A DNA stretch of 64,000 bases from Bacteroidales bacterium UBA3808 (GCA_002369075.1 DFEG01000010.1:2-64001), one strand, 5' to 3'; counted from the stretch's first letter, positions 26,226 through 50,997 are shown. Numbers and translations: made by a program. Notes: generated by a model not told the origin, from the sequence alone.

Positions 26226-26247
26226 TAACTTTCAAAAATTTAGCATT

Positions 26248-26811: not shown

Positions 26812-26886
26812 GCAAGGGCAGCGCAAACTGCCTTTGACCTTTTCAGACGAGTTTTTTGATCATATTTGTACAAGAGTACAAAATTA

Positions 26887-26918
26887 TTTGTGTATGTCAA
26901 TTATTTTTTGTAACTTTG
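26887..26918 (+). promoter_or_regulatory. Promoter of the defence block (TTTG, 20 nt, TAACTTTG)
   Basis: -33 at 26887-26890 and -7 at 26911-26918. Confidence 0.6.
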
Positions 26919-26966
26919 CAGCCGATTTTGTGTGCGCGCCGCACACATATACAGGCATAAGCGCGT

Positions 26967-28313: not shown

Positions 28314-28431
28314 TCAAATAATTAACTTCTACCATGCCGCACCATCCTTTGAGGAACTCATTCGGTTCCTCTCCGAACTCCAATAGCGTTTTAGAAAACT
28401 AAAATGATAAAATATAGCAAAATCTAACATT

Positions 28432-30300
28432 ATGGAAGTCAATATTAAGAAAGCCGTGAAAATGTTCTTCTCAAGCTCATCGTTTGAGATGATATACTTT
28501 GAGGCAATTGCTAATGCGTTAGATGCAGGGGCTTCAGCTATTGATATCAAAATTCAAGGAACACGAGATAATAATAAAACGATTCAATTGCAGAATCTAT
28601 CCTTGGAGATCCAGGACAATGGCGTGGGAATCGATGAACCTCGTTATGATAAATTCAGTAAGTTATTTGATGTTGAGGAACAAAGTCATAAAGGACTTGG
28701 TCGATTGGTGTATTTGTGCTATTTCGATGAGGTTCGTGTGGAGAGCGTCTTTAGGAATACCAATCATCGTTCTTTCGTCTTCTCTGAATCCTTCCAGAAA
28801 AGTATGGGCGAAACAATCGAGCCGTGTGAGCATCAAGAGAACGGCACAACTTTCCGAATGACTCATTTCTCGGGGGAGAAATTGCATAACAATGAATTTG
28901 TGCGTCCTACATATCTCAAGAGAGCTATACTAGATTGTTTTTATCCTCGTCTTTATAAAGAAAAAATTGCTGGCAAAGATATCTCCATTAATATCACTGC
29001 TGTATTCGATGGGATAACCAAATCCGAGATTATTCGAACGTCTGATATACCGAACTTCAAGGAATATCCCTTGGAATACCCTATGGGGTTGTTCACCTCC
29101 ATTGACATGTATTATTCAATCAAGGAAGTACCGGCGGAAGAAGCGCATATCATCACTGGAATTGTGGTTGATGATAGAACAATCCCGATTGAGGTCATCG
29201 ATCCTGAGAATCAACCGGCAGACTATGAAATGATATTTCTGTTAATCGTGAAATCTCATGATGAAAGTCTTGTCAATGCGTCTCGTCAGGCTCTGAATCT
29301 TACCAATACAGACTTGGGGAGTATTAAGACGACATTCCGCGAAGCGATAGCAGATATTATTAATAGAGATGTTCCCAAGGTTGTTGAGGCAAATAAGGCA
29401 AGTCAAGAATATCTATGTAGAGTATATCCTCATTTGCAGGGCTATTTCGATACCAAAGCTATCGGATATGCCTCTCGCAATGATGTCCTTAAGAAAGCTC
29501 AAGACAGATTCTTCAATGACCAAAAAGAAATTCTTGGCGCCTCCTCTACATTAACAGAAGAGCAATTCCAAAAGACATTAGCACTCTCCGCACGTTCGCT
29601 GGCTGAATATATATTATTCCGTCAACGGATTATTGAGAGAATGAAAAGCCTTTCTCCGGACAATTCAGAATATGATCTTCATAATTTAATTGCGCCACGA
29701 TTTAATGAATTTAAAGAGGAGAATTTATCGGATGACTTATATGTCAATAATGTATGGATTCTGGATGATAAGTTCATGAGTTATTCGACTGTGTTGAGTG
29801 ACAAAGAAATGTCGGATGTGATATCTATTCTTACCAACGGTGAAGCATCTCAAGAATCTGAAAATGGTCGACCGGATATTGCTTTATTCTTCTCAGGGAA
29901 TCCGGCTGACAAAGATACAAAAGTGGACGTAGTTATTGTCGAACTGAAGAAGAAGGGTATTGATTCGGGACGAATTTCCGTAGTGGAAACGCAGTTGGAG
30001 GAACGTGCACGCAGTCTGTATAAGTATTACAACAAGCGCATTCAACGGATATGGTATTATGGAGTGGTGGAATGTATAGATGAGTATATTCTGCATTTAA
30101 AAACCAATAAGTATAAACCTTTATTCTCAAAAGGAAAAGTTTTCTATAACGAGAAGGAAGTGGCTGTAGATGTTAATACGGACGAAGTGGTTATTGCTAA
30201 TACATTTATCATGGATATTGATGCAATGGCGAACGATGCAGCTGCCAGAAATGAAACATTCCTCAAAATTTTAAGGCGGCAATTTGCAAACAACGACTAA
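28432..30300 (+). CDS. GHKL (MORC/HATPase_c_3-like) ATPase with a C-terminal PD-(D/E)xK nuclease-like motif
   Basis: The Bergerat motifs EAIANALDAGAS, QDNGVGI and HKGLGRL. The C-terminal motif is GRPDIALF...VDVVIVELKKKG (PD at 29872-77, ELK at 29941-49). Confidence 0.7.
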   Translation: MEVNIKKAVKMFFSSSSFEMIYFEAIANALDAGASAIDIKIQGTRDNNKTIQLQNLSLEIQDNGVGIDEPRYDKFSKLFDVEEQSHKGLGRLVYLCYFDEVRVESVFRNTNHRSFVFSESFQKSMGETIEPCEHQENGTTFRMTHFSGEKLHNNEFVRPTYLKRAILDCFYPRLYKEKIAGKDISINITAVFDGITKSEIIRTSDIPNFKEYPLEYPMGLFTSIDMYYSIKEVPAEEAHIITGIVVDDRTIPIEVIDPENQPADYEMIFLLIVKSHDESLVNASRQALNLTNTDLGSIKTTFREAIADIINRDVPKVVEANKASQEYLCRVYPHLQGYFDTKAIGYASRNDVLKKAQDRFFNDQKEILGASSTLTEEQFQKTLALSARSLAEYILFRQRIIERMKSLSPDNSEYDLHNLIAPRFNEFKEENLSDDLYVNNVWILDDKFMSYSTVLSDKEMSDVISILTNGEASQESENGRPDIALFFSGNPADKDTKVDVVIVELKKKGIDSGRISVVETQLEERARSLYKYYNKRIQRIWYYGVVECIDEYILHLKTNKYKPLFSKGKVFYNEKEVAVDVNTDEVVIANTFIMDIDAMANDAAARNETFLKILRRQFANND

Positions 30301-30307
30301 GAAAAAG

Positions 30308-33115
30308 ATGAACTATTCACCGGGACAACGAATCACGGTACGCGAGGAAGAATTCCGTATCGTTCGAGTAGACGCCTATGACGCGCAGCATGCGTTTTTG
30401 CATTGCTGGGGACTGAGCGAGTTGGTTAAAAACCACTCCTATATCTTCGACACTAACATCGAGAAAGACATCGCTGTGGTCGACCCGACCACTGTTCAAC
30501 TAGTGCCGGAAACGGACACCCAGTGCAAGAAAACGCGCCTGTTGCTCGAAGCAGAAATACGCAACAATGCCTATTTCTCCAACAAGATCATCATCGCCGA
30601 CAAAGGTGCTTATAACCTCTCTGAGTACCAACTCGAACCGACCCTCAAAGCCTTCGAACTGCCCCGTCCTCGTCTGCTCATTGCTGACGGCGTCGGTCTC
30701 GGTAAAACGATCGAGGTTGGTATCTTCCTCTCTGAGATGATTCGTCGCGGGCGCGGACAACGTATACTCGTCTGCGCGTTGAAGTCTATCTTGGCGCAGT
30801 TCCAAGAAGAGCTCTGGACCCGCTTCGCTATCCCCTTGATGCGTCTCGATAGCTACGGTGTGGATAAGATCCGTGCCGAGATACCGATGAACAAGAACCC
30901 CTTCGATTTCTACGACAAGATCATCATCTCCATCGACACGCTCAAGAACAACGGTAAGTTCCGTGGATGGCTCGAGAAAACGCGCTGGGACATCATCGTC
31001 ATTGATGAGTGCCACACCGTCGCCAACGATGCTAGCCTTCGTGGTGACTTAGCGCAGTTCCTCGCCGGTCGGTGCGATAGTCTCATCCTCACCTCTGCCA
31101 CACCCCATAACGGCAACCCTAAGTCCTTCGCCAATCTCATCAACATGCTTGACCCCATCGCCATTCCGCGTAACGGCAAGTACGGACAGGCGGAGGTCGA
31201 ACCATACTACGTGCGCCGCTTCAAGAAGGACATCCTCGACCAGCAGGTGCGCAGTAATTTCCAGGAACGGCAAGTACACTCCGTGCCTATTCATTTCGAA
31301 GAAGCGGAACTCAACTTCCTCCGCCTCCAGAACCAGCTCAAAGTTCGTCTGCTCCATGACGAAGACCGTGCCGACGCACTCTTCGCCGTGCAGATCTTCA
31401 AGTCCTTCCTCTCTTCGCCTGCCGCAGCTATTAGCACATTGAAGAGCCGTATTGAGAGAAGAGAAAATGAAGACGACAACCTCACCCAACTCTATGAGGC
31501 CATGTCGGATATCGTCACCATGGGTATCGACAGTCGGTACGCCGCTTTCAATGCGCAACTAAAGAAGATCTGGTCGGAGAACAAGAACGAACGTATCGTG
31601 GTCTTCAGCGAACGTATCGACACCCTCCGTTTCCTCGAAGAACGCCTCAAAGCCGACTTCCGTCTGCGCGATGAACAAGTGCGCGTCTTCGATGGTTCGC
31701 TCAGCGATGTGGAGCAAGAGGACATGGTCGCTGACTTCGGCAAAGCCGACAGCCCCATTCGTGTTTTCCTCAGCAGCGACTCCGGCTCGCAAGGTGTCAA
31801 CCTCCATTTCTATTGCCACAACATGTTCAACTACGATATCCCGTGGTCGCTCATCACGCTCGAACAGCGCAATGGACGTATCGACCGGTACGGCCAGCAG
31901 CAGACCCCGAATATCTACTACCTCGTCGCCAACACCGACGAAGAACAGCTCAAGACCGATTTCACCATCATCGACCGCCTCAAACGCAAAGAGGAAGAGG
32001 TGCATAACACCCTCGGTGATGCCATGCAGGTCATGAATCTCTACAGCGTGGACAAGGAGGAACGTGCCGTGTCCGATGCAATCCTCACCGGCAATGTCAA
32101 CTTCCTTGACCAACCGGCAGAAGCACCGCAAGCAGAAGGCTTCGGCGATTTCTTCGCCCTCATGAGCCAATCCACTCCGCCGGTCACCCACCGCGAGATG
32201 ATCGAGAAACGCATGTCCCTCTACGAGGACGATATGCATTTCTATCAGGAACTATTCGACACCCTTCGCAACGAAGGTGCGCTCCACGACACGCCCGTCG
32301 AACTCAAGACCGGCACCGGAGCACCGTACTTCGATATCCCCTACAGCCGTGAACTCAAGGAAGTCCTCTTCGACATGCCGAAGGAAGCCCTGCCTGTACG
32401 CAGCTCCTTCTGCCTTTGTGCCGACAAAAAGGCGATCATGGACTCCATCGAGAAGAGCCGTCGCACCAACGACAACCGCTGGGCAGAGATGCAGCTCCTT
32501 TACGACCTGCACCCCATCATCCAGTATATGATCACTAAGCTGACCGCCAGCGTCCCCAAGAACGAAGCACGCGTCGTCAAGACCGACCTCGTTCCGCAAG
32601 GCACCATCAACTATCTCTTCTACGGCAGTCAGTCCAACGGTCTCGGACACTCCATCATGAGTAAGTTCTTCGTCGTCTCGGTTCGTCCCGATGGTTCGCT
32701 CGTTGAGACACCCGTCTCGCTGGCTGACTTCATGGCGCAGCACCCCATCGACAAGCCCTTCTACGGCATGCAGGTAACGGACTCCGAACTGGCACTCGCC
32801 CAGTCGCTCCTACCTCAAGCCGTTGAGCATGGTCAGATGAAATACCTCATCGACCAGCAGGCTAAACAGCGTGACCGCATGCAGAACTATCTCGCCAAAT
32901 ACAACGAGAAAGTGAAACGGTGGGCTGACGAGAGTGAACGAGCTGTGCAGAACACCCTCTTCGATGGTTCGGAAGTGCAGATAACACGCCGCACCAAAGA
33001 TAAAGAACTGCAAGAGATCGAAACAATCCGCGACAAGAATAGCATGTTCTATCGCGATATGTTCACCCTGGATAACGTACCTTATATTCGCCCCTTGGCT
33101 GTTTTCTATAATTGA
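30308..33115 (+). CDS. SNF2-family helicase (DISARM DrmD-like)
   Basis: LIADGVGLGKTIEVG, VIDECHTVAN, LTSATPHNG, QGVNLH, RNGRIDRYGQ. Confidence 0.85.
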   Translation: MNYSPGQRITVREEEFRIVRVDAYDAQHAFLHCWGLSELVKNHSYIFDTNIEKDIAVVDPTTVQLVPETDTQCKKTRLLLEAEIRNNAYFSNKIIIADKGAYNLSEYQLEPTLKAFELPRPRLLIADGVGLGKTIEVGIFLSEMIRRGRGQRILVCALKSILAQFQEELWTRFAIPLMRLDSYGVDKIRAEIPMNKNPFDFYDKIIISIDTLKNNGKFRGWLEKTRWDIIVIDECHTVANDASLRGDLAQFLAGRCDSLILTSATPHNGNPKSFANLINMLDPIAIPRNGKYGQAEVEPYYVRRFKKDILDQQVRSNFQERQVHSVPIHFEEAELNFLRLQNQLKVRLLHDEDRADALFAVQIFKSFLSSPAAAISTLKSRIERRENEDDNLTQLYEAMSDIVTMGIDSRYAAFNAQLKKIWSENKNERIVVFSERIDTLRFLEERLKADFRLRDEQVRVFDGSLSDVEQEDMVADFGKADSPIRVFLSSDSGSQGVNLHFYCHNMFNYDIPWSLITLEQRNGRIDRYGQQQTPNIYYLVANTDEEQLKTDFTIIDRLKRKEEEVHNTLGDAMQVMNLYSVDKEERAVSDAILTGNVNFLDQPAEAPQAEGFGDFFALMSQSTPPVTHREMIEKRMSLYEDDMHFYQELFDTLRNEGALHDTPVELKTGTGAPYFDIPYSRELKEVLFDMPKEALPVRSSFCLCADKKAIMDSIEKSRRTNDNRWAEMQLLYDLHPIIQYMITKLTASVPKNEARVVKTDLVPQGTINYLFYGSQSNGLGHSIMSKFFVVSVRPDGSLVETPVSLADFMAQHPIDKPFYGMQVTDSELALAQSLLPQAVEHGQMKYLIDQQAKQRDRMQNYLAKYNEKVKRWADESERAVQNTLFDGSEVQITRRTKDKELQEIETIRDKNSMFYRDMFTLDNVPYIRPLAVFYN

Positions 33116-36100
33116 TGAGCACTATGGCAGAAAACGTAAAATATCGGTTTATTGAGAATATTGGTGATTACTTCCCAAGTGATTACTTTGGCGAAGACTT
33201 CCTCAAGAAAGTGCAACAACTGGCCGACTATAATGACGACCAGATGAAGGCACTCTGTCCGCCTTATGTACAGCTCAAGGAGCACTATACCCAATACAAG
33301 AACTTCATCGTCAACCAGAACCCGCGTATCAAAGATGCAATCTTACGAACCAACGAGTTCCACAAGCGTCTGCTTACCATTCTTGGCTATGACCCTGAAG
33401 ACAAAGGCTATAACGAGAAATATATCGTCAGCGAAGATGGCGACAAAGCGGAGATCATCCCTGTCCGGAATATCCTCCGTACCCATAACAAAGTCCAAAT
33501 GCTCATCATGGAGATGCGACCCCTTATCAAGGTCGGCGAAGATGAACCCGCAGGTCTCTTCCAGCAGCAGTACGACGATGGCGAAGTGCCGCATCAGCGT
33601 TATTCCGCCAGTCATTGGGAGTCCGTCTTCACCTTTGACAAAGAGCATGAGCGTATCTCGCCTTCCGTCATCAACAAAGCGGTCAGCCAGATCTTCCTCA
33701 TGCCCGAAGAGAAACGTCCGCAATACATCCTCATGTTAGCGGGTAGCAAGGTTATGCTCCTTGACCAAGATAAATGGGCACGCGGCAGTTACCTCATCTT
33801 CTCGCTCGATGAACTCTTCTCGCAAGCAAGCATATCGGCCTTCCGTAACTACTACGCCCTCTTCCATCTGCTCGTCTGCAAGGACACCCTTGCTGCCGAC
33901 AGTGAGACGCTGCTTATGTCCTCCCTCATCGAGGATAGTTACCGCAACGCCTATTCGGTCACCCAAGACCTCAAGCAAGGTGTCGTCAAAGCCGTAGAGA
34001 CTATCGCAAACGAAGCGCTCTATTACATGAAGAACGTCGCGCATCAGCCCTTCGGTAAACGACAGGAGGATGGCACCTACGACGAGACCGACGATCGCTT
34101 CGAAGCCGAAGTTAAAGATGACTGCCTCACCCTCGTCTATAGACTCCTCTTCATCTTCTATGCTGAGAGCCGTCAGGAACTGGAGATCCTTCCTACCAAC
34201 GATGAGGTCTATAACAAAGGCTACTCCCTCGATATGCTTCGCGACCTTGAGCAAGTCAACCTCGTCAGCCAGCAGAGCCGCGACGGTTATTTCTTCGACG
34301 ACAGCATCAAGAACCTCTTCTACATGCTCAGTCATGGCATCAACGAGGGTGTCGAGACCAAAGCTTTCCGCGTCATCCATATCGATAGCCCGATGTTCGA
34401 TGACTCTAAACTGAACCACCTCAACGGGGTCAAACTGCGCAACCAGAAATGGCAAGAGATTATACGCTCCCTCTCACTCTCCAATCGGGATGGCAAATGT
34501 GGACGTATCTCCTATGCCAACCTCGGCGTCAACCAATTAGGTAGCGTCTATGAGAGTCTGCTCGCATATCGCGGTTTCTATGCCGAAGAAGATTATATCG
34601 AGGTACACAAAGCTGATACTCCGCAAGACGGCACTTTCCTCGTGCCCTATAGTCGCTTCGAAGCGTTCGACCTCAGCGAAGTGCTCACTGATAAAGACGG
34701 CATGCCGATCATCCTCAAGAAAGGCACTTTCGTCTATCGACTTAACGGTCGTGACCGGCAGAAATCAGCCAGTTACTACACCCCCGAAGTGCTCACACGC
34801 AGTACCGTCAAATATACCCTCAAGGGAATCCTCGAACGCGTCGAGAAAGGAGAGATATCGGCTCTCGAACTGCTCAACATGAAAATCCTCGAACCGGCCA
34901 TGGGAGCCGCAGCGTTCCAGAACGAGGTCATTAACCAACTCGCTGAAGCCTACCTCACCTATCGAAGCAAAGAACTGCGTGAGCAAGGACGGGAGAAATG
35001 GCGTATCGAGCCCGATAAGTACCGCGATGAACTCCAGAAAGTCAAAGCCTATATCGCTACCCATAATGTCTATGGCGTAGACTTGAACCCCACCGCAATC
35101 GAACTGGGTAAACTGAGTCTCTGGCTTAACGTTATCCATAAAGACATGGAGACTCCTTTCTTCTCCAATCGTCTTGCGCTTGGTAATGCAGTCATTGGTG
35201 CTTGGCTCAAGGTGTACGACAAATCCGAAGTGGTAGGTAAACCCGCTCGTAACAACAAACTCATTCCTACCGAGTGGTGGGAACGTGCACCGCATCGACT
35301 CCACTTCAAGAATAACCGCATCAAGCGTAACCCCAACGAGATATACCATTTCCTCCTTCCCGATAAGAACATGCTCGGTGTCCGTGCCATCAAAGAGCAG
35401 AAAGCGGCACACCCCACCGAATCCTCTCTCATGTCGCAGAAGCTGGCGCAATGGACAGCTGCGCTATCGTCTGAGGAGTTTAAGACGCTCCAACGGCTCT
35501 CATCCAAGATCGACATCCTCCTTCGCGAGTATGTCGAGTTCCAGATGTCTATCGAGAAACTGACGGAGAACCGCTATGCCCTTTGGGGAACACCCGGCAA
35601 GAACGAGACCTCGATGCTCGACAGCAACGACTTCGTCGATACCTATCGCGAGAAGCAAGAACTCAACGACACCCGTTATCGTCATGATAACGCTTACTAC
35701 CGTCTCAAGATGGTCATGGACTACTGGTGCTCGCTCTGGTTCTGGGAGTACGACGATGCCAACAGTCTGCCCTCACGTGAGGACTACTGGAACGATATCG
35801 AAGCTATGCTCGATGTCAGCGATGAGAAACTCAACAAAGGAGCAAAGATGGTTATCAAGCCCTCTAACCTTCATGTGGGTGGTGAGCAGATGCGTATGTT
35901 CGAGGAAGAGACTCAACTGACCATCGGAGATGAAGTTGTTGTAGAGGAATCACCCTACGAGCAGACCGATGAAGAGACCTCTGTGCTCCTTACCAAGACC
36001 AAACAAGAGATCCTTGCCGAGACACAAGGACACCGCACAACGCTCTTCGATAACTCCTATCGTTTCCGTATCGTCGCACGACTCGCAGAGCGATACCATT

Positions 36101-38064: not shown

Positions 38065-38071
38065 TGTAACT

Positions 38072-38842
38072 ATGAAGGATAAATTACTGAAATTAAAGCA
38101 AGACTTGGGACCACTGGATAGTTACTACGATCAATATCCTGAGTTGGATCGCATTATTAACGCGTTAAAGATGTATATTGGTCAATGCCTTCCTAAGGAG
38201 AAGAAAGAATGGGAAGATCGTATAAATGCTATTCAGTATCTATCTCCGATGGTGCAGTTTTCGGGTTACTATGATAAAGAGCGAGATAAGAGCGCCTTCC
38301 AGAAAGGCACCAAATCATTAGCTAATATCATTGATTTAGTCATTGAGCGTATCGAGATGGAAGAGCAACCTGCTCCCGCTAAGCGAAAGGCTAAATGTGA
38401 TAACCCCAACGTCTTTATCGTTCATGGTCACGACGAAGCAATGCGAGAGAAGGTTGCCCGGACAATTGAGAAATTAGAACTTACTGCAATCATTCTTAAC
38501 GAGCAAAGTAATAAAGGACAGACGATCATTGAGAAACTAGAGGAACACTCCAATGTTGGGTTCGCTGTCGTTCTATTGTCCCCTTGCGATGAAGGTAGAA
38601 AGGCCGGTGAAAATGATTGGCTGCCTCGCGCAAGGCAAAATGTCATCGCAGAAATGGGCTACTTCATTGGAAAATTAGGTAGAGATCGAGTTTGTATTTT
38701 GCAGAAAAAAGAGGTTGAAACACCATCTGATTTCACAGGTATCGTATATACTCCGTTTGATGAGAATGATGGCTGGCAATTGAAGTTGGCTAAAGAACTG
38801 AAAGCCGCTGGATATAATGTAAAAATCGAAAATCTATTATAG
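38072..38842 (+). CDS. TIR-like domain protein (PF10137 / COG4271 type, CAP12/Pycsar-effector-like) with a ~110-aa N-terminal helical domain
   Basis: NVFIVHGHDEAMREKV...ILNEQSNKGQTIIEKLEEHSNVGFAVVLLSPCDEG...RARQNVIAEMGYFIGKLGRDRVCIL...PSDFTGIVY...GWQLKLAKELKAAGY. Confidence 0.8.
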   Translation: MKDKLLKLKQDLGPLDSYYDQYPELDRIINALKMYIGQCLPKEKKEWEDRINAIQYLSPMVQFSGYYDKERDKSAFQKGTKSLANIIDLVIERIEMEEQPAPAKRKAKCDNPNVFIVHGHDEAMREKVARTIEKLELTAIILNEQSNKGQTIIEKLEEHSNVGFAVVLLSPCDEGRKAGENDWLPRARQNVIAEMGYFIGKLGRDRVCILQKKEVETPSDFTGIVYTPFDENDGWQLKLAKELKAAGYNVKIENLL

Positions 38843-38844
38843 AT

Positions 38845-41800
38845 ATGTTACCACTCCAACAAGCGTACGAGGTGAAGGAATCGGTGCTGGCCTACATTGA
38901 AGCCACTTTCCGATTCAAAGAAGAGAAAGTGCATAGCGCTTTCTATCAACTCATTCGCGACCCTGAAAACGGACTCTTCAAAGGACCATACATCTCCTTG
39001 AAGACTCCCTTCGTCAAAGCCACTCCCGAAGAAGCCGCAGCTATCCCCTTGGATATCAAGCCAACCGGATTCCTTCCCCATAAGCACCAGCTGCGTAGCT
39101 TCGAGCGACTCACTTCCCGTGACGGGCATCAGCCTCAGCCGACGCTCCTCACCACCGGTACCGGTTCCGGTAAGACCGAGTGTTTCCTCTATCCGATCCT
39201 CGACTACTGCTATCGGCTCAACAAAGATGGTGCACAAAAGGGTATCAAGGTTATCATCATGTACCCCATGAACGCCCTCGCTACCGACCAAGCAACGCGT
39301 CTCGCAGAAGCAATATACAACGATGAAAGACTCCGCGGAGTGGTAACGGCGGGACTCTTCATCGGTGAAGGTGCGGAACGCAAGGCACACGCAACCACGA
39401 TGGGAGAACATAACATCATCGAAGATCGAGACACCATCATCAATACCGCACCGGATATCCTTCTCACCAACTTCAAGATGTTGGATTACGGTCTCATGCA
39501 GCAGCAATATACCAAACTGTGGCACGGCAATGCCAACACCGCAGAACCTATGCTGCGCTATCTCGTCCTCGATGAGTTGCATACCTACGATGGTGCGCAA
39601 GGTACTGATGTCGCTAACCTCATCAGACGTCTCAAACTTAAACTATCGCTCCCCAAACATCATCTCTGTCCGGTTGGCACCAGTGCAACCATCAGCGGTG
39701 GTGAACAGAGCAAGCAGCAACTCATAAGCTACGCTTCCGATGTCTTCGGAGAAGATTTCGACGACCAATCGGTCATTGGTGAAGATCGTGTCGCAATCAA
39801 CGATTTCTTCGATGAATACCTCGACCCCTTTATTCCTTCCGAAGCCGACCTGCAGACCTGCAACGTCCAACTCATGCCGATGCCCGATTATATCCAGCAG
39901 GTACGCCGTATCTGGCTCCCTGGTGCAGGTGATAACCTCGAAGCGATCGGAGAAGGAATACGTTCCCTTACCGTCATTCGTGACCTGCTGAGCATCACCC
40001 AAGAGCATGTCGTTACGGTCGAGCAATTGGAAGACAAACTCGGTGATATCAACCCCGCCTTCCAGCGCCTGCGTCTCAAAGGCAAAGGCAAAAAGGTCAT
40101 CGAGACCATTCTTGCACTCGTTTCCGAAGCACGTGACGGGAAATTCCCGCTGCTCTTCCTCCAGATCCAACTCTGGCAACGAGAACTCAGTGGTGTCGTT
40201 CGCTACGTACAACGCGAACCTGAATTCACATGGCGTAACAGCCTGGAGCAAGACGGTCGTGTCGCGCTCCCAATTTACTTCTGCCGTGACTGCGGTGCAA
40301 GTGGTTGGATCAGCACCAAGAACGCAACCGACTTCCGTTTTGCTACCGACCTCGGTAAGATCAACAAAGCCTTCATGTCCAACGATAAGGACATCGTGCT
40401 CATCAATACCTATGGTCTCAACCATAAACCGATCCCCGACTATCTGGGTGAAGCATCAACCAACGTGGAGGAATATATCCGTCCGCGTGACCTCACCATT
40501 GTCGATAGTTCCGACGATGAAGCAATGCGTATCGTCTATTGCTCCAAACGTCGTGTAGCCAAGAAAACAGGTTCGCAGGCTTTCGTTAAGAACTGTCCGG
40601 AGTGCAACAGCAACTCCCTCGCTATCGTTGGTGGTCGTACCAGCACACTCTCTTCTGTCGCAATCAGTCAGATCATGGCTTCTGACTTCGACGAAAGCGA
40701 TATCGCACAACGCAAAGTGCTCACCTTCACCAATAGCGTCCAAGACGCAGCGCACCAAGCCGGTTTCTACGAGGCACGAACCTATCGTTTCCTCCTTCGT
40801 CAGTCCATACAGCAGTACCTCAAATACCGCTATGAGCAGACGAACGCGCCGATCCGGCTTACCGAATTGCAAGAAGGATTCAAAGCTTATTGGAAAGAAC
40901 ATCTTCCCGGAGATGAGTACTACTATCGCTTCCTTCCGACCGACCTCCTCAACCAAGTCGATCTCAACGAGAACTACCGTGATGCCAACGGTCAGTTCAT
41001 CGAAGCCTTCAAAAAGGAATTCGACCTGCGTATCGATTGGGAGATTTGTGCGGAATTCGGTCTTATGGCGCAACGAGGTCGTACCCTCGAGAAAGTAGGT
41101 TCCAGTGCGTGCTTCTTCGATAAAGAACAACTCGAAGATGTCTTCACCATCATGCAACCATGGATGCGGGAAAACCAACTCGACTATGTCGCAGACGACC
41201 GCCAGCGTTTCCTCCTCTTCCTTAATGGACTCCTCCACCGTATGCGTCTGCGTGGTGCTGTCGATCATCCTTACTATGAGCGATATCGTGGTATCGAGTT
41301 CAAACAAGTGAACCTCAACTGGTCTTTCCAACTGCAACATACCCACTTCCTCAATAAGAAATTCTTCGGCAATGTGCAGTTCCCGAAGTTCTTGCTCACC
41401 CATTACGAGCGGGATCTTTCTGACATACTGGACATCACCGAAATGCAGGGAAATAACGTCAATTGGTACGCCCAGTTCTTCCAACGTTCATTAGAAGGAA
41501 GTCAATTCGGTCAAAAAGCCTATCGTGAAGTGATCAACGATTTCTACCAGCGTCTGCTCGAAGCGATGGTCGAAGCCGGACTCGTCAATCGTGGCAATGC
41601 GGCTAATGGCAACTATGCCATCTGCCCCGAAGCCATCCTCGTAGAACCGCGTGTGAAGCATATCAAATGTGAAGATTGTCAGTCCATGCTCTGTGTGGCG
41701 CAAAGTGATACACTCGCGGAAGGTATTGCCTGTCTGAACTATAACTGCAACGGCTCTTATACCCAAGTACAGCGGAAGGAAGACAACTACTATAAACGCG

Positions 41801-44800
41801 TCTATGACCGAGACAAAGCACCGCGTATCTATGCCCACGAGCACACCGGACTACTCGAACGCTCCAAACGGGAAGAGATTGAGAACGACTTCAAACTGCA
41901 CCCGCATTTCAACTCCATCAATGCCCTCTCTGCTACCAGCACACTCGAGATGGGTATCGACATCGGTACGCTCAACGTCGTCGGCAATACCGACATACCG
42001 CCCAAACCCAGTAACTTCTTACAGCGTATCGGTCGTGCGGGACGTAAATCAGGTACGGCCCTCGTTCTCAACTATGCCCACTCCGATGGAGCACACGATA
42101 TGTTCTACTTCGCCGACCCGCTCGGCATGATGGAAGGAGAAGTGCAGACTCCGGGTTGTTTCTTGCAAGCCAAGGATATTCTCCGGCGTCATTTCTTCGC
42201 GTTCTGTATCGACTCATGGACTTCTGCTGATCCGACGAACACCATTCCGGCGCTCGTCAAACTCATGTCCTTGCGCAGAGATACACTCGCATCGCCCGAT
42301 TTCTTCCTCACGAAGATCCTGGCGTTCATCGATACCAACCGCGATACACTGCTCGCTAAATTCAGGGAACAATATCCGCCGAAAGCAGAAGAATCGCTCG
42401 ATAAACTCCAAGAGACCGTCATCAACGGCGATTTTGCAGAAGCCATCAAAGGGGCCTTCCGTGATCTCATCGAGCGCCACATTAGTACGTTTCGTCGCAT
42501 GAACGATATCGAGTCCCAGATCAATGCACTCGCTGCAAACGATCCGAGACGCGACGCACTCAAAGATGAACTCAAACCGCTCAAACGAGAGATATCCCGT
42601 ATCCTCAATGCCAACGTCATTGAGTTCATGACCAATGCCGGTCTGCTGCCGAACTATGCCTTCCCTGAGACTGGTGTCAAACTGGAAGCAACCGTCTATA
42701 AGCAGAAGCCCGCTGAAGATGAGAGTGTCTCCGAACTTATGCCCGACACCTTCGAACTCGTACGTCCCGCGTCCAACGGTCTCAAAGATCTTGCCCCGGG
42801 AAACCGATTCTATTCGCAGAAATACGAGATGCTGATATCCGGTGTCAATACCTTCGATTGGAATAAGACCCTCGGACGATTCCGTTACTGCTCCGATTGC
42901 GATTGTATCGCTGCCGAAGGAACCGACTGGTTCAACCAGCCTACCTGTCCCAAATGTGGTAGCGCTTCATGGGGTGGAACCGGTAACATCCACCATTTCC
43001 TCCGCTTCACCGGTGCTCGAAGCAGCATGAAACGAACCGATGCAGCTATCAACGACCGTTCCGATGAACGCGAACGCGAAAATTTCCATATCATGAAGCA
43101 TTTCCGCTTCAACTACCATGGTGCAGTCCGCTCCTACGGTCTCAAGAACGTCGGTTTCGGTATTGAGTTCTGTCCGGAAATGGACCTCATGGAGGTCAAC
43201 TACGGACCGCAGATGGCTTCGCAATCGCAAGTACAGATCGAGGGTGCTAAAGTACCGTCGCGTGGATTCATCGTCTGCCGCGAGTGTGGCAAGACGGTCA
43301 CCAAAGAAGTGGCTGACGCAGAAGAATGTCACTATCCTTTCTGCCACCACAAAGATGTACCGTACCCGCCGCATGAGGAAGCTGACATGGATGTCTTCAT
43401 GCCCACCTATCTCTACCGGCGCACTCAAACCGAAGCCATCAAAGTGCTGCTCCCTGTTCATCTACTTGATACCGAAGCTACGGTGCAGATGTTCAAAGCC
43501 GGACTCGAACTCGGCATGCGGTACTACTACCAGAGTAGCCCCGATCATATCCGCATCGATGTATACCGCGAGATGAACCAAGCCACACGCCAGTTCGATA
43601 ACTACCTCATCATCTACGATACCATTCCGGGTGGTACCGGCTATCTCTCGCGACTCCAATCGCCCGAAGAATTCAGCAAACTTCTCACCATCGCCTACGA
43701 GCATATCCGCGATTGTGAGTGCCAACGGCACGGAAAGGATGGGTGCTACCATTGTATCCTCTCTTATGCCAACCAATATATCCGGGAACAACTCAGTCGG
43801 GATCGTGCCGAAGAACTCTTCAAGAAACTCGTCGATGAACTCTCCAACTGGGAAGAGATAGATGGCTCTATCGGAACCGTCACGCAGAGTGGTGTCATCG
43901 AAGATAGCGAACTCGAACGGCAGTTCATCCTCGATATGGATCACTACTGCCGTGCCCACAATGGTTGGACGTGGTCCAAGCAACATGGCGAGAATGGTCT
44001 CTACCATTATATCCTCGATATCAAGCAGAAAGACCGTGCCTTACGTTACGTCATTCGTCCGCAATACCAACTCGGTGAAGCACAAGGCGTCGCCTTATAC
44101 ACCGTGCCTGACTTCCAGATCATCTGTATCAAAGCCATGGTGAACGGACAGAACATAGAGACCGAACGTATCCCGCAGTGGTCTATCTACCTCGACGGCT
44201 ATAGCTTCCATGCCAACTCTGAGTGCATGCGTTTCTATAGCGACTTCGAGAAACGGGAAGCTATTCGTCATAATACGCTCACCCGCATGAACACGTGGAC
44301 GCTCACTTGGGATGATCTCAATATCTTCGAAGGACAAGCAACGGTCGCTGAAGATGGACTCTATAACGGTAACTCCATGAACGGGTTCGCCAATGAGACC
44401 AGACTCGCCAAGAACTCCTTCGAACGACTCTTGCAAATGCTCATCTTGGTCGATATCGATTCAATTCGTTTTGATATCTACAAATACTTAGTTTGTAAGT
44501 CAACCAGTAGTGAGAATATTTGTCCTCCAGAGAGAGTAGAAGATGCTATATTCCTTCACGCTAATGGGGAATTCGCTGACGAAGTGACTCCGCAGATGAG
44601 GCAAAATTGGTCTTTCTTCGTTAAAAATCAATTATTGCAGCGTTCTTCACTCGTCAATGGATCTGCATGGGTGATGCCAAAACAAGGCGTTACTGTACAA
44701 GACAAACTCGAAGATAAGGTATGCTACGACTTCCAGATTGTTCCGAACCTTTCTGTAATCAACAAAGAAGATTGGAATGACTTTTGGCGTCGTTACAATC

Positions 44801-44853
44801 TTCTGCAGTTCTTCAAACTTGTGGGCGATGAAGAATCAGAAATAGAGGAATAA
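38845..44853 (+). CDS. 2002-aa DEAD/DEAH helicase fused to a DUF1998/MZB zinc module (DrmA-DrmB-like fusion) with several zinc ribbons and a C-terminal Vsr/DUF559-like motif
   Basis: LLTTGTGSGKTECF, VLDELHTYDG, LQRIGRAGR, the CRECG...CYHC module, zinc ribbons CRDCG/CPECN and CSDCDC...CPKCG, and the tail VPDFQ...IYLDGYSFH. Confidence 0.8.
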   Translation: MLPLQQAYEVKESVLAYIEATFRFKEEKVHSAFYQLIRDPENGLFKGPYISLKTPFVKATPEEAAAIPLDIKPTGFLPHKHQLRSFERLTSRDGHQPQPTLLTTGTGSGKTECFLYPILDYCYRLNKDGAQKGIKVIIMYPMNALATDQATRLAEAIYNDERLRGVVTAGLFIGEGAERKAHATTMGEHNIIEDRDTIINTAPDILLTNFKMLDYGLMQQQYTKLWHGNANTAEPMLRYLVLDELHTYDGAQGTDVANLIRRLKLKLSLPKHHLCPVGTSATISGGEQSKQQLISYASDVFGEDFDDQSVIGEDRVAINDFFDEYLDPFIPSEADLQTCNVQLMPMPDYIQQVRRIWLPGAGDNLEAIGEGIRSLTVIRDLLSITQEHVVTVEQLEDKLGDINPAFQRLRLKGKGKKVIETILALVSEARDGKFPLLFLQIQLWQRELSGVVRYVQREPEFTWRNSLEQDGRVALPIYFCRDCGASGWISTKNATDFRFATDLGKINKAFMSNDKDIVLINTYGLNHKPIPDYLGEASTNVEEYIRPRDLTIVDSSDDEAMRIVYCSKRRVAKKTGSQAFVKNCPECNSNSLAIVGGRTSTLSSVAISQIMASDFDESDIAQRKVLTFTNSVQDAAHQAGFYEARTYRFLLRQSIQQYLKYRYEQTNAPIRLTELQEGFKAYWKEHLPGDEYYYRFLPTDLLNQVDLNENYRDANGQFIEAFKKEFDLRIDWEICAEFGLMAQRGRTLEKVGSSACFFDKEQLEDVFTIMQPWMRENQLDYVADDRQRFLLFLNGLLHRMRLRGAVDHPYYERYRGIEFKQVNLNWSFQLQHTHFLNKKFFGNVQFPKFLLTHYERDLSDILDITEMQGNNVNWYAQFFQRSLEGSQFGQKAYREVINDFYQRLLEAMVEAGLVNRGNAANGNYAICPEAILVEPRVKHIKCEDCQSMLCVAQSDTLAEGIACLNYNCNGSYTQVQRKEDNYYKRVYDRDKAPRIYAHEHTGLLERSKREEIENDFKLHPHFNSINALSATSTLEMGIDIGTLNVVGNTDIPPKPSNFLQRIGRAGRKSGTALVLNYAHSDGAHDMFYFADPLGMMEGEVQTPGCFLQAKDILRRHFFAFCIDSWTSADPTNTIPALVKLMSLRRDTLASPDFFLTKILAFIDTNRDTLLAKFREQYPPKAEESLDKLQETVINGDFAEAIKGAFRDLIERHISTFRRMNDIESQINALAANDPRRDALKDELKPLKREISRILNANVIEFMTNAGLLPNYAFPETGVKLEATVYKQKPAEDESVSELMPDTFELVRPASNGLKDLAPGNRFYSQKYEMLISGVNTFDWNKTLGRFRYCSDCDCIAAEGTDWFNQPTCPKCGSASWGGTGNIHHFLRFTGARSSMKRTDAAINDRSDERERENFHIMKHFRFNYHGAVRSYGLKNVGFGIEFCPEMDLMEVNYGPQMASQSQVQIEGAKVPSRGFIVCRECGKTVTKEVADAEECHYPFCHHKDVPYPPHEEADMDVFMPTYLYRRTQTEAIKVLLPVHLLDTEATVQMFKAGLELGMRYYYQSSPDHIRIDVYREMNQATRQFDNYLIIYDTIPGGTGYLSRLQSPEEFSKLLTIAYEHIRDCECQRHGKDGCYHCILSYANQYIREQLSRDRAEELFKKLVDELSNWEEIDGSIGTVTQSGVIEDSELERQFILDMDHYCRAHNGWTWSKQHGENGLYHYILDIKQKDRALRYVIRPQYQLGEAQGVALYTVPDFQIICIKAMVNGQNIETERIPQWSIYLDGYSFHANSECMRFYSDFEKREAIRHNTLTRMNTWTLTWDDLNIFEGQATVAEDGLYNGNSMNGFANETRLAKNSFERLLQMLILVDIDSIRFDIYKYLVCKSTSSENICPPERVEDAIFLHANGEFADEVTPQMRQNWSFFVKNQLLQRSSLVNGSAWVMPKQGVTVQDKLEDKVCYDFQIVPNLSVINKEDWNDFWRRYNLLQFFKLVGDEESEIEE

Positions 44854-44871
44854 CTCAAAATATAGTCGTGT

Positions 44872-45849
44872 ATGCAAGTTATCAAGAAAACATTTGAGTA
44901 TTTCACGGCAGAAAAGTACTGCGATTTGGAATATGGTACAATCTATTATGTGCCCGGAACATCCTCGCACGAACTCAACGACTATATCTGCGCACGTGCC
45001 GACGAGATAGCCGCTCAGCTCAACAACGATGACCGTAACTGGGTCACATGCCGTATCGTCTACCTCACAAAAGACAATCCTCTCTTTGCTCCGTCCTCAA
45101 AACCTACGCTGCACAGCGCCATGTTACCGACGAGCGATACGCCCGCAAACGCATGCAGTTTCCTAAAGGCATCGCTGGACATCACCGAACCTTCCATTGT
45201 CGAAGACGCTCTCATCGAGTATTTCCGCACCTTGCAGCTGATGTTCGATGATATCTTGGACAAAGGCACGTGTAGCCATTATCTTCTGACTAGTACGATA
45301 CTCTCGCCCGTCGATGATCAGATTCGCTTCTCTGTTTCCCGTCGGGAGATGGATTTCGATGAAAATCGTATTAAAACTTGCGAGTGTCTCGACATGGCGT
45401 ACGAGGAAGAAGATGTTGAGCATTTCGACTATCCGAGTCGCCTCGAAATCACACCTAATACCTTCCAAGTGCTCCTACCGGACTACCATCGGGAAATCAA
45501 GTTCAACGCGCAGATTAAAGCCCTGTACGTACTCTTTCTTAACCACCCGGAAGGCATTCGCATGAAGGAAATCGGCGACTACAAAGAGGAGTATAAGCAA
45601 CTTTATCTATATTTCACTAATCGTGGTAATCTGGAACAGTTACGCCTCGCTGTCGATAAACTCTTCGATGCGTATAACCCCAATACCCTCAATGTCAAAA
45701 AATCCCAATGCAGCGAGCAATTAAGAATTGCTATTCCAGAAGATAACTTGCGACAATACTATGAGATTCAAGTTCATCGCGGCGAACCCCACAAGATCAA
45801 CCTCGACCGCTCCCTTGTCTCTATGCCTGATTTCTTGCACCAACTATAG
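44872..45849 (+). CDS. Hypothetical protein, last gene of the DISARM-like operon
   Basis: 325-aa ORF 19 nt after the helicase stop. No recognisable motif. The C-terminal third (ALYVLFLNHPEGIRMKEIG) could be wHTH-like. Confidence 0.5.
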   Translation: MQVIKKTFEYFTAEKYCDLEYGTIYYVPGTSSHELNDYICARADEIAAQLNNDDRNWVTCRIVYLTKDNPLFAPSSKPTLHSAMLPTSDTPANACSFLKASLDITEPSIVEDALIEYFRTLQLMFDDILDKGTCSHYLLTSTILSPVDDQIRFSVSRREMDFDENRIKTCECLDMAYEEEDVEHFDYPSRLEITPNTFQVLLPDYHREIKFNAQIKALYVLFLNHPEGIRMKEIGDYKEEYKQLYLYFTNRGNLEQLRLAVDKLFDAYNPNTLNVKKSQCSEQLRIAIPEDNLRQYYEIQVHRGEPHKINLDRSLVSMPDFLHQL

Positions 45850-45899
45850 TTTGTAACGTTACAAACATTTGCTTGCCTCGTATAAAAGCAGTACCTTTG
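45848..45899 (+). promoter_or_regulatory. Palindrome-promoter cassette 1 (AGTTTGTAACGTTACAAAC, TTTG, 20 nt, TACCTTTG)
   Basis: Palindrome at 45848-45866 overlapping the TAG stop at 45847-45849. -33 at 45868-45871 and -7 at 45892-45899. Confidence 0.7.
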
Positions 45900-45923
45900 C
45901 ACCGGATTTAAAACAACCCGACC

Positions 45924-46889
45924 ATGACCCAAGAACAAGACATAAGTAAACTGGATTTGCTATTTACGGAAATTGATACGTACCGTAGCAGTAAATTCTT
46001 CAAAAGGTTGATCGAATTCTGCGCCCGCTTTAAGACGCTGGCACCATACAACGCAATGCTTGTGCGCTTCCAAATGCCGGGTGCTCGTTATGTATTGACC
46101 TCTGCCGAATGGAGATCCAGATATCACCGCGGCGTGAAAGCAAAAGCAAGACCGTTAATCATCCTTGTGCCCTTTGGACCGGTGAATTTCGTGTTCGACA
46201 TCAAGGATACGTATCCTCTATCTCCTGATGATCCAAACACCACGGAGCAGATTCTGAAAGCGATGGAAAATCCTTACGCAACGCACGGGGAATTCAACAG
46301 ACAGTATCTTCATTTTCTCGAAAACAACCTGCAATATCATGGTATAGCTTACAATCCTAATTGGGAAACCGGTTCTACGGTGGCTGGAGAGCTCAAGCCA
46401 CTGCCGAATTCTTCAGAATACATGAAAGTTTATATTCCTTTTAGGAAAGGAGAGTTTCCTGTGCAGTCAAAGGCTCATTACGTTTTGAGCACCAGCAGTG
46501 ACGGCCATGATGGACAAACATTGGCCACTATTGCACATGAGTTGGGACATCTATTCTGCAATCATCTGCCCGCGCCCAAAGGTTGGAAGCATGCTTGGGC
46601 AGAAAGAGACATCGAATCCGAAGCCAAAGAATTTGAAGCAGAAGTGGTCTCATGGTTTATATGCGACAGATTGGGAATAAAGACTCCTTCTCACGAATAT
46701 CTCAGTGGCTTTTTGAAAAGCAATGATGAAATCCCCAAAGGAGCAAGCGTAGAAAGAATATTCTATGCCATCACTAAGGTGTGGGAAATGTGTTATAATG
46801 TGAACTTCACGTATAGAAATGGTTTGTTATACAAAAACGACGAGAAGTTTCAGGATGACGTCAAAGCAATAATAGAAAAGAACAAATAA
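45924..46889 (+). CDS. HExxH zinc metallopeptidase (ImmA/IrrE-like; the N-terminal half is possibly ArdC-N-like)
   Basis: ATIAHELGHLFCNH. The N-terminal PYNAMLVRFQMPGARYVLTSAEWRSRYHRGVKAKARPLIIL resembles the ArdC/DUF1738 pattern, judged by eye. Confidence 0.55.
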   Translation: MTQEQDISKLDLLFTEIDTYRSSKFFKRLIEFCARFKTLAPYNAMLVRFQMPGARYVLTSAEWRSRYHRGVKAKARPLIILVPFGPVNFVFDIKDTYPLSPDDPNTTEQILKAMENPYATHGEFNRQYLHFLENNLQYHGIAYNPNWETGSTVAGELKPLPNSSEYMKVYIPFRKGEFPVQSKAHYVLSTSSDGHDGQTLATIAHELGHLFCNHLPAPKGWKHAWAERDIESEAKEFEAEVVSWFICDRLGIKTPSHEYLSGFLKSNDEIPKGASVERIFYAITKVWEMCYNVNFTYRNGLLYKNDEKFQDDVKAIIEKNK

Positions 46890-47341
46890 TGGATACCCCT
46901 AAGAAAATAGTATATGTGGACATGGATAATGTCCTTGTCGATTTCCAGAGCGGGATAGATGCCATGCAAGACGTCATTACGTCAGAGTATGACGGTCGCA
47001 TTGACGAAGTGCCGCATATCTTTGCACACATGGAACCGCTCCCCGGCGCCGTTGAAGCCTACCGCGCCTTGTGCGAAAAATATGATTGTTATATCCTCAG
47101 CACTTCTCCTTGGAGCAACCCTACCGCTGCAAGCGATAAGTTCGATTGGGTTAAGAAATATCTTGGCGATGTTGCCTATAAGCGTCTAATCCTCTCGCAC
47201 CACAAGAACCTCAATCGTGGTGACTATCTGATCGATGATCGCCCTAACAAATGTGGTGCCGACCTCTTTGAAGGCGAAGTAATTCCTTTTGGCAGCGACC
47301 AATTCCCCAACTGGGATGCAGTATTGAAGTATTTATTGTAA
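46889..47341 (+). CDS. 5'(3')-deoxyribonucleotidase (NT5C family, HAD superfamily)
   Basis: HAD motif I (VYVDMDNVLVDF), ILSTSPW, and the C-terminal DYLIDDRP. Confidence 0.7.
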   Translation: MDTPKKIVYVDMDNVLVDFQSGIDAMQDVITSEYDGRIDEVPHIFAHMEPLPGAVEAYRALCEKYDCYILSTSPWSNPTAASDKFDWVKKYLGDVAYKRLILSHHKNLNRGDYLIDDRPNKCGADLFEGEVIPFGSDQFPNWDAVLKYLL

Positions 47342-47363
47342 TGAAATAATTAATAGCTAATTT

Positions 47364-50994: not shown

Positions 50995-50997
50995 CTT

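Follow-up and report, generated by a model that had tools for sequence, protein, structure and literature searches.

Six genes that stand end to end on one strand raise the question of whether they make up a single defence system or several systems that are neighbours. Such a locus lies at 28432–45849 in a stretch of 64,000 nucleotides (nt) from Bacteroidales bacterium UBA3808 (GCA_002369075.1 DFEG01000010.1:2-64001), which was analysed as a whole and is called the window. A sequence-only reading of the window had described the six genes as one composite operon, like class 1 DISARM but with an undescribed architecture. The answer reached here is that the three large genes at 30308–38064 and 38845–44853 very likely form ARMADA, an anti-phage system that is related to DISARM and was described in 2025 (Bell et al. 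2025 bioRxiv, PMC12458937), and that the other three genes are separate modules. The core is assigned by homology to a Bacteroidales ARMADA without the fourth gene, a defence operon related to class 1 DISARM. The architecture of the core is thus one already described and experimentally validated.

Identification of the core genes

The core consists of armA (30308..33115, + strand; 935 amino acids counted from the ATG, with an in-frame TTG at 30284), armB (33115..38064, +; 1649 amino acids, with an in-frame TTG at 33112) and armC (38845..44853, +; 2002 amino acids). Their products were compared directly by BLASTP with the ARMADA locus of Escherichia coli O157 Sakai, which served as the reference. 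The SNF2 protein encoded by armA is 34% identical to E. coli ArmA over its full length (516 bits, E 1e-171), and the methyltransferase encoded by armB aligns with E. coli ArmB at 37% identity over residues 202–1646 (879 bits). The 2002-amino-acid protein aligns with E. coli ArmC at 31% identity over residues 1–1825 (804 bits), whereas its comparison with E. coli DruE yields only three local high-scoring segment pairs of at most 104 bits each. No core protein matches DruH or E. coli ArmD. The gene order ArmA-ArmB-ArmC of ARMADA type II is found in the window.

The alignments extend to the catalytic sites. The Walker A motif GLGKT and the DECH motif of ArmA line up with K136 and D236 of E. coli ArmA, the EPAMGAAAF (GxG) and NPPW motifs of ArmB with G605 and N971 of E. 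coli ArmB, and the GSGKT and DELH motifs of ArmC with K110 and D234 of E. coli ArmC. All six of these residues, mutated by Bell et al., are therefore conserved in the window. Four of the six mutations abolished defence in E. coli and ArmB G605A reduced it; the other mutant with a partial loss was ArmD D454N (PMC12458937).

Profile searches with Pfam, NCBIfam and PADLOC, which the sequence-only reading had proposed, support its SNF2, methyltransferase and DUF1998 assignments. The armA product carries the Pfam domains SNF2-rel_dom and Helicase_C and is BrxHII/RapA-like; it reaches 344 bits against the NCBIfam model DISARM_DrmD, under the cut-off of 610. The armB product has a Pfam Eco57I methylase domain and is a PglX-like N6-adenine DNA methyltransferase, with REase_MTase_IIG PDLC03614 as its best PADLOC match (1469 bits, compared with 191 for DrmMI). 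In the armC product, DEAD, Helicase_C and MZB/DUF1998 (MZB at residues 1553–1638) are joined in one polypeptide, which scores only 13 bits against DrmA in NCBIfam (cut-off 999) and 50 bits in PADLOC. Its best matches in PADLOC 2.0 are DruE1 and DruE3, with 334 and 323 bits; this Druantia reading comes from a release that predates ARMADA and was rejected once the protein had been compared directly with E. coli DruE and ArmC. As readings of the SNF2 protein, Hma, BREX, Dpd and Zorya were likewise rejected, as their PADLOC scores lie under that of DrmD and far under the ArmA match.

The ArmC protein is predicted to be a YprA-family DEAH helicase with a fused OB-CON-DUF1998 part and a C-terminal Vsr-like PD-(D/E)xK nuclease. 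Its residues ~1688–1825 share with E. coli ArmC the motifs SELE, PDF/PDY, YLDGYxFH ((Y/F)LDGxxFH), KREAIR (KRxAIR) and WTLTW (WTxTW), and this block corresponds, at the level of motifs, to the predicted Vsr-type nuclease of Bell et al. Further features expected of ArmC are a helical, BrxA-like insert behind RecA1, a zinc module with a beta-barrel and, in RecA2, a MarR-like insert. The collinear full-length alignment suggests that the window protein may have these inserts as well.

The earlier view of a class 1 DISARM-like core thus survives in part. The SNF2 protein, the methyltransferase and the DUF1998 helicase are indeed related to those of DISARM and are non-canonical for it, but the departures take on another meaning once the core is recognised as ARMADA. 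The helicase-DUF1998 fusion, presented as a novel departure, is a defining feature of ARMADA. A gene of the phospholipase D (PLD) family is absent as claimed, and none of the open reading frames (ORFs) scanned in or around the operon gave a PLD-family match; this absence is no departure, since the PLD-less condition also defines ARMADA.

Relatives of the core and the armB-armC junction

The neighbourhoods of ten ArmC homologues with 50–96% identity were examined, together with a tblastn census. At L010, L011 and L014, ArmA and ArmB are not visible in the available sequence, and these loci were left out of the evidence on the armB-armC junction. The trio recurs and co-varies in related loci, with identities of 55–98% for ArmA, 56–84% for ArmB and 50–96% for ArmC, and ArmA is kept, at 55–98% identity, in every related locus with visible upstream sequence.

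The closest relative, L012 (ArmC 96% identical), has the order GHKL-ArmA-ArmB-TIR-ArmC, as in the window. At 84% ArmC identity, L007/L008 read AbiE-ArmA-ArmB-ArmC-HNH-PARG-NUDIX, and at 83%, L013 reads ArmA-ArmB-ArmC-437aa-HNH. These relatives at 83–84% have neither the GHKL gene nor the TIR gene nor the 325-amino-acid gene of the window, which tells against counting the three as operon parts. The order ArmA-ArmB-TIR-ArmC returns in L009 at 73%, and L121, at 52%, consists of ArmA-ArmB-ArmC. The Bacteroides thetaiotaomicron loci L001-3 (50%) read ArmA-ArmB-DUF6078-Fic-ArmC-UvrD-like, and L004-6 (53%) read ArmA-ArmB-YhcG nuclease-ArmC-UvrD-like. In the Bacteroides loci, the UvrD-like protein is homologous to ArmD over its full length and 33% identical to E. 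coli ArmD; therefore, these loci are four-gene ARMADA II systems with cargo between armB and armC.

By these comparisons, the junction of armB and armC acts as a slot for cargo. It spans 38065–38844 in the window, 8283–9972 in L001 and 8724–9962 in L004, and holds a TIR gene in the window, L012 and L009, DUF6078 and Fic/helix-turn-helix (HTH) genes in B. thetaiotaomicron and a DUF1016/YhcG nuclease gene in L004-6. The slot is empty, with armB abutting armC, in L007, L013, L121 and E. coli; in E. coli the two genes overlap. The region 5′ of armA is also variable and contains the GHKL nuclease, an AbiE toxin-antitoxin or nothing. The neighbourhood analysis suggested earlier thus gives a divided outcome, in which the core trio co-occurs as expected and the accessory genes are found mostly in contexts without ARMADA.

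Absence of ArmD, probable exchange in ArmB and selection

ArmD is a RelE-like domain fused to a GajB/UvrD-like helicase. A tblastn search of the whole window with E. coli and Bacteroides ArmD returned nothing at E values up to 1, and the Bacteroides relatives at 50–56% ArmC identity carry the gene. A second absence concerns the ArmC terminus. The terminal domain of ~75–100 amino acids (FDTEGG...IAEA...GY.V) is present in 106 of 121 ArmC sequences (120 homologues and the window), and also in E. coli ArmC, while the clade of the window (the window and P0001-P0005, ~2000 amino acids) is devoid of it. The terminus encoded at 44700–44853 was compared with those of P0006, P0016, P0041, P0059 and E. 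coli ArmC.

Wherever ArmD is visible downstream, ArmC has the terminal domain; in the window clade, no member whose downstream sequence is visible has either of the two. A neighbour-joining tree, rooted on E. coli ArmC and drawn without support values, places the window clade among Bacteroidales lineages that contain ArmD. The two contigs of an independent lineage (P0029) both stop 72 nt 3′ of ArmC. The loss of ArmD and of the terminal domain is probably derived and a single event, so that the correlation between the two is suggestive only; weak as it is, it suggests that the terminal domain may be the docking site of ArmD. The locus looks like a type II derivative rather than a type I system, because the window ArmC is 50–56% identical to Bacteroides ArmCs followed by ArmD and nests among them.

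The core is not decaying. The ratio of nonsynonymous to synonymous substitution rates (dN/dS) in comparison with L012 is 0.03 for ArmC and 0.04 for ArmA, and in comparisons with more distant relatives, in which dS is saturated, dN is 0.06–0.22. ArmA and ArmC are under strong purifying selection. The ArmB protein shows a mosaic pattern, being 96–100% identical to that of L012 over residues 1–1050, 30–68% over 1051–1500 and 80–96% over 1501–1649; on either side of it, ArmA reaches 98% identity and ArmC 96%. The variable region begins just after NPPW, and residues ~1050–1500 correspond to about 36265–37615. This mosaic points to an exchange of the target-recognition region, for which it is the expected pattern, and argues that ArmB specificity may be under diversifying pressure.

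The embedded TIR gene

The gene in the slot (38072..38842, +) encodes 256 amino acids. Its product matches the Pfam TIR family PF10137 (2e-39) behind a helical N-terminal region of ~110 amino acids, for which Pfam at relaxed thresholds gave nothing usable. It also matches the PADLOC family PDC-S35 (2e-78), with 262 bits to the model PDLC05005 over residues 4–255 and profile positions 6–262 of 264. An alignment with solved structures of Cap12 TIR domains was obtained (9lmq, E 1.7e-7), and the catalytic-site motif RxNVxxExGxFxG is conserved. In L012 the same armB-armC slot holds a TIR gene of 89% identity and in L009 one of 53%, and homologues are found on 1152 plasmids in contexts without ARMADA or restriction-modification (R-M) genes.

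The PDC models derive from genes that lie within BREX, DISARM or type I R-M systems, and 96.7% of these genes are co-oriented with the host system. The window gene resembles PDC-S35 in its full-length model match and in its co-oriented embedding inside a methylation-based defence operon. In contrast to Cap12/PycTIR-type effectors, it has no SAVED/cyclic-nucleotide sensor domain and no cyclase partner. By this evidence, the TIR gene is predicted to be PDC-S35 candidate-family cargo of the slot and not an ARMADA component. Its product is a probable NADase, an enzyme acting on nicotinamide adenine dinucleotide (NAD). The NAD-linked abortive arm proposed for the whole operon could apply to the TIR gene alone, which would then be an embedded, co-resident system and not a subunit.

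The GHKL-nuclease gene

The first of the six genes (28432..30300, +) encodes a GHKL protein of 622 amino acids, which Pfam detects weakly as HATPase_c (1.8e-7). In an alignment of 36 family members, E24, N28, D31, DNGxG at 62–66 and HKGLGR at 86–91 are invariant. The C-terminal half has its own invariant positions, RPD at 480–482, D499, E504 and K506 (RPD...D..ExK), and these bear out the nuclease-like tail that had been read from the sequence. For this tail, Pfam at relaxed thresholds gave nothing usable, and a weak NCBIfam match (3e-5) relates the C-terminus to the BbrUII/HgiDII restriction enzymes. The whole protein matches no PADLOC model, HmaC and mads included.

The family profile gave, among the Protein Data Bank (PDB) sequences, a PMS2 match at chance level alone (E 0.31), and a fold search was therefore needed. 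The AlphaFold2 (AF2) model, with a predicted local distance difference test score (pLDDT) of 80, matched the GHKL-plus-transducer modules of MutL, PMS2, Hsp90 and SMCHD1 with E ~1e-10 and target-normalised TM-scores of 0.5–0.6. The search resolved this part of the protein and not the nuclease domain.

Iyer, Abhiman and Aravind (2008, PMC2292703) described the paraMORC3 family as a GHKL domain with an S5-like transducer and a C-terminal nuclease of the restriction-endonuclease fold with D-ExK. Its members, prevalent in Bacteroidetes and known also from Proteobacteria, frequently stand alone with no conserved neighbours and in other cases are linked to R-M genes (PMC2292703). The GHKL protein of the window, compared by family description only, fits paraMORC3 in architecture, phylum and standalone or R-M-linked habit; the difference is that its gene abuts ARMADA with a gap of 7 nt. 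Apart from the window, this adjacency is found only in the 96% relative L012. None of 80 metagenomic loci with GHKL homologues has ArmA, ArmB or ArmC beside it, and the recurrent neighbours there are HsdS (13 loci), HsdM (11), HsdR (5) and other methyltransferases. The GHKL protein is predicted to be an autonomous restriction-type module beside ARMADA, not a component of the system.

Two further kinds of context were observed for its homologues. In L015-L017 (8001–17866), a C5 DNA methylase is in translational coupling with a GHKL-nuclease of 65% identity, with a HATPase_c_3 - Z1 - DUF4420 - AIPR cluster on the 3′ side and a YhcG nuclease and AbiE on the 5′ side; these loci are a dense defence island of gut Bacteroidales. 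At another locus, the gene stands alone beside an AAA_15/DUF4276 pair.

The 325-amino-acid gene and the downstream block

The last of the six genes (44872..45849, +) encodes a protein of 325 amino acids with no assigned function. No match was obtained in Pfam, relaxed thresholds included, NCBIfam or PADLOC. The AF2 model is confident (pLDDT 84.5), has two domains and found no match among PDB folds (best E 0.58). The tblastn census detected no homologue in the ArmC-anchored loci. Conversely, homologues were located at 18 genomic loci, all in metagenome-assembled genomes of rumen and gut Bacteroidales, and none of these has ArmA, ArmB or ArmC. Instead, 11 of the 18 continue with homologues of the next genes of the window in shuffled subsets, which include a zincin-like protein, NT5C, an AAA ATPase and a DSP phosphatase, and one such block lies directly 3′ of the housekeeping rnf genes. 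The 325-amino-acid gene thus appears to head a separate neighbouring block and is predicted not to be an ARMADA component.

This block (44872–51660) consists of eight co-directional, tightly packed genes. The 325-amino-acid gene is followed by genes for a 321-amino-acid protein with weak zincin/M78 similarity, an NT5C-like 5′-nucleotidase, a 256-amino-acid protein, a 552-amino-acid AAA ATPase (IetA-like in the AAA domain only), a 235-amino-acid protein, a DSP-type phosphatase and a DUF1287 protein. The block could be a defence or anti-defence cassette. Behind it, at 51880–53303, stand genes for a microbial PARG and a NUDIX hydrolase that overlap by 4 nt; the pair may belong to the island backbone as a module concerned with ADP-ribose or NAD. 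In L007, the same pair directly follows ArmC-HNH at a distance of ~170 nt, and 44872–51660 is therefore an insertion or replacement relative to L007. The NUDIX protein matches the PADLOC candidate PDC-S07 (1e-11).

Gene packing and promoter signals

The description of the six genes themselves holds well. All six packed, co-directional ORFs are present on the + strand at the positions given for them; the junctions, claimed to be tight, measure 7, -1, 7, 2 and 18 nt in gene order, the armB start overlapping the armA stop by 1 nt. Each of the 15 peptide motifs quoted occurs at one exact position, and Pfam backs the domain calls (HATPase_c, SNF2, Eco57I methylase, TIR, DEAD and MZB/DUF1998). However, packing fails to delimit the functional unit, because the seven genes 3′ of the six (45924–51660) are packed equally tightly, with gaps of -10 to 32 nt.

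PorZ and genes of the type IX secretion system mark the host as Bacteroidota. Scans for sigma-70 promoters and intrinsic terminators gave counts at or below the shuffled expectation; these scans follow the E. coli consensus and are uninformative for Bacteroidota, and a search with the Bacteroides -7 consensus TAnnTTTG was used instead. The promoter that had been placed at 26887–26918 is recovered as a Bacteroides-type site at 26911 (-33 TTTG / -7 TAACTTTG), 56 nt 5′ of the gene for an AlbA_2 / HATPase_c_4 / winged-HTH protein, so named from its Pfam domains (26967..28313, +; 448 amino acids). It is the sole motif of this type upstream of the operon. In agreement with the claim that the genes have no promoters between them, the next exact + strand -7 motif is at 45892, between the sixth gene and the following gene. 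One transcript from ~26.9 to 45.9 kb is possible, and the other modules could share it with ARMADA.

The AlbA_2 protein may be a regulator and the first gene product of this transcript, and its membership in the unit is uncertain. A 25%-identical paralogue is located 3′ of ArmD in B. thetaiotaomicron (L001 18590–20131). Proteins of the AlbA_2 (Schlafen-like) / HATPase_c_4 / winged-HTH type recur near ARMADA and also stand beside 4 of the 80 GHKL-nuclease loci.

The mobile element

The operon is carried by an integrative element of ~42 kb (20660..62642), bounded by 32-nt direct repeats at a tRNA-Leu gene. The exact repeat TTGTGCGCAGGATGAGACTCGAACTCACACGA is found at 20660–20691 and 62611–62642 and overlaps the 3′ end of tRNA-Leu(gag) (62613–62697, -). 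A tyrosine integrase gene (61211–62524, -) lies beside the tRNA gene, and an HTH gene, a primase gene and ArdA are near the left end. A second repeat of 19 nt, TTTGGGCAGATTTTGGGTC, a possible arm site of the integrase, lies a short way inside each end, at 20774 and 62550. From the repeats and the integrase, the element is predicted to be integrated at tRNA-Leu, with all the defence genes on board. The primase (22112–25309; 1065 amino acids) has a DnaG-type zinc-ribbon, catalytic core and Toprim in its N-terminal ~360 amino acids, followed by ~700 uncharacterised amino acids, and its PADLOC matches (RT_UG29, RTasDnaG-like) are confined to the primase part.

Proposed mechanism and alternative explanations

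In E. coli, ARMADA II provides direct, non-abortive protection (PMC12458937; PMC13463889). This protection is abolished by Walker A/B mutations in ArmA and ArmC, by the ArmB NPPW mutation and by the ArmD Walker A mutation, and also if any gene of the four is deleted. By analogy, ArmB of the window would methylate a host motif to N6-methyladenine (m6A), set by its swappable target-recognition region, and thereby mark self DNA. ArmA and ArmC would engage unmodified invader DNA through ATP-driven translocation and unwinding, and the Vsr-like nuclease of ArmC would cut it, with non-abortive clearance as the outcome. The lineage would descend from a four-gene type II system in which ArmD, the RelE-GajB-like helicase, was lost along with the final domain of ArmC. 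On the same island, the paraMORC3 nuclease and the TIR NADase would act as separate layers.

Several observations weigh against an ARMADA core flanked by independent modules. ArmD is essential for ARMADA II in E. coli according to two studies (PMC12458937; PMC13463889) and is absent here, which makes the activity of the three-gene form a prediction only. The assignment to type II rests on relatedness to ArmD-containing Bacteroides systems, with type I known by description only. Within ArmC, Pfam at relaxed thresholds finds no match in residues 1640–2002, where the Vsr label is taken from PMC12458937, and only chance-level matches (E up to 5) in residues ~316–952, where the inserts would lie. 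The short gaps around the GHKL and TIR genes and the promoter-free interval 26911–45892 are compatible with some coupling, and so is the finding that a lineage with an ArmC of just 73% identity keeps the TIR gene at the same place.

These points leave room for other explanations of differing plausibility. That six or seven genes form one composite, non-canonical DISARM, with the GHKL, TIR and 325-amino-acid proteins as subunits or effector arms, is barely credible. Shared direction, junctions of -1 to 18 nt and the lack of a recognisable internal Bacteroides-type promoter motif speak for it, as does the order GHKL-ArmA-ArmB-TIR-ArmC in the 96% relative; yet the arrangement is restricted to such very close relatives, and at 83–84% identity there is AbiE or nothing on the 5′ side, an empty ArmB-ArmC junction and HNH on the 3′ side. 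ARMADA is missing from all 80 GHKL loci and all 18 loci of the 325-amino-acid gene, whose homologues travel with the downstream block, and tight packing does not discriminate, as the downstream genes are equally tight. A looser connection, in which the TIR NADase and possibly the paraMORC3 nuclease are independent systems wired to ARMADA as an abortive layer, is unlikely but deserves more weight. Such a layer would fire on inhibition or overload of ARMADA and might offset the lost ArmD, with PrrC-EcoprrI and BrxU-BREX as models. The TIR gene sits in the same slot in two lineages, with ArmCs 73% and TIR genes 53% identical, its gaps are 7 nt and 2 nt, its catalytic-site motif is intact and its dN/dS is 0.10–0.14; moreover, embedded genes often complement their host system (Payne et al. 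2024), and the TIR-bearing clade is the ArmD-less clade. Against this stand the ArmD-less L007 and L013, which have no TIR gene, the unrelated cargo in the slot elsewhere, the standalone occurrence of the TIR family on more than 1000 plasmids, and Pfam scans that found no sensor domain linking it to ARMADA and no signal-producing enzyme.

The loss of ArmD can also be read in opposite directions. A non-functional remnant, left after the loss of ArmD and the ArmC terminal domain, would agree with the abolished defence of ArmD deletions in two E. coli studies and with the absence of any ArmD homologue from the window, but this explanation is very unlikely. The three ORFs are intact with conserved catalytic residues, dN/dS is 0.03–0.04 (dN 0.06–0.22 where dS is saturated), and the ArmD-less form persists across relatives at 68–96% identity. 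The apparent exchange of the ArmB recognition region implies that specificity is under selection. ARMADA type I is likewise a three-gene system. In the opposite direction, the system may have been remodelled, ArmD and its presumed docking domain being lost together and the TIR NADase, with or without paraMORC3, now acting as a coupled second effector. This version is distinctly unlikely; if true, a non-abortive, methylation-guided system would have turned into a two-tier one that ends in NAD+ depletion. An ARMADA core with separate neighbours remains the preferred reading.

Implications

With this reading, an apparently exotic operon is re-filed under ARMADA, a catalogued and validated system, and neighbourhood censuses prove able to test and dismiss the "extra parts" of a defence operon. 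The ArmD-less lineage, which is under purifying selection and also without the ArmC terminal domain, provides a hypothesis for the docking site of ArmD and for the requirement for it. The cargo slot between armB and armC, with its TIR, Fic and YhcG genes, extends the idea of "guilt by embedding" to ARMADA. The mosaic region of ArmB is a likely specificity determinant and would support the proposed methylation-based self-marking in ARMADA. What is new is modest: a predicted ArmD-less ARMADA II derivative from Bacteroidales, with embedded cargo and an apparently swapped ArmB recognition region.

Comparison with known defence systems

Class 1 DISARM (DrmD, DrmMI, DrmA, DrmB, DrmC) resembles the window core in its related SNF2 protein, large adenine methyltransferase and YprA helicase with DUF1998. 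The differences are that DrmA and DrmB are separate genes, fused in the window, that an EVE-like N-terminus and a trigger loop are features of DrmA, and that the nuclease of DISARM is a separate PLD protein, DrmC. At the family level, the SNF2 protein and the methyltransferase of the window are related to DrmD and DrmMI and are not members of these families. The resemblance to Druantia is that ArmC and DruE share a branch of the YprA tree. In the window, ArmC is accompanied by ArmA and ArmB, with no DruH (best E 0.29), DruA-D or DruM/F/G. The E. coli DruE matches at the helicase and DUF1998 motifs only, and the DruE of Druantia type III has PLD-like nuclease domains, compared with the Vsr-like one of the window ArmC.

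ARMADA type I comprises three genes, for a YprA homologue, a BrxHII-like helicase and a PglX-like methyltransferase, and shares with the window this three-gene content, without ArmD. A reversed type I order, resembling the window locus, has been reported in archaea and cyanobacteria. ARMADA type II has the strict order ArmA-ArmB-ArmC-ArmD (PMC12458937) and was validated in E. coli NCTC 12900, ATCC 8739 and EDL933 (mBio 2026, PMC13463889); the same study, a validation in EHEC, notes its prediction by DefenseFinder and likens ArmC to a DrmAB fusion. The window differs from type II in the absence of ArmD and of the last ~75–100-amino-acid ArmC domain, and in the TIR gene between armB and armC, a pair that overlaps in E. 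coli. The host differs too, since the window belongs to Bacteroidota, and PMC12458937 stresses Actinomycetota and Pseudomonadota, with no mention of Bacteroidota in its main text. The likeness to type II includes the order of SNF2 protein, methyltransferase and YprA helicase, full-length homology with the catalytic residues kept, the fused DUF1998, the C-terminal Vsr-like nuclease and the lack of a PLD gene. The proteins are also of similar size, with 935/1649/2002 amino acids in the window and 952/1644/2113 in E. coli type II. The E. coli ARMADA II islands are located at tRNA-Leu and tRNA-Phe, and the window shares with them the placement of the system on a mobile element at a tRNA-Leu gene.

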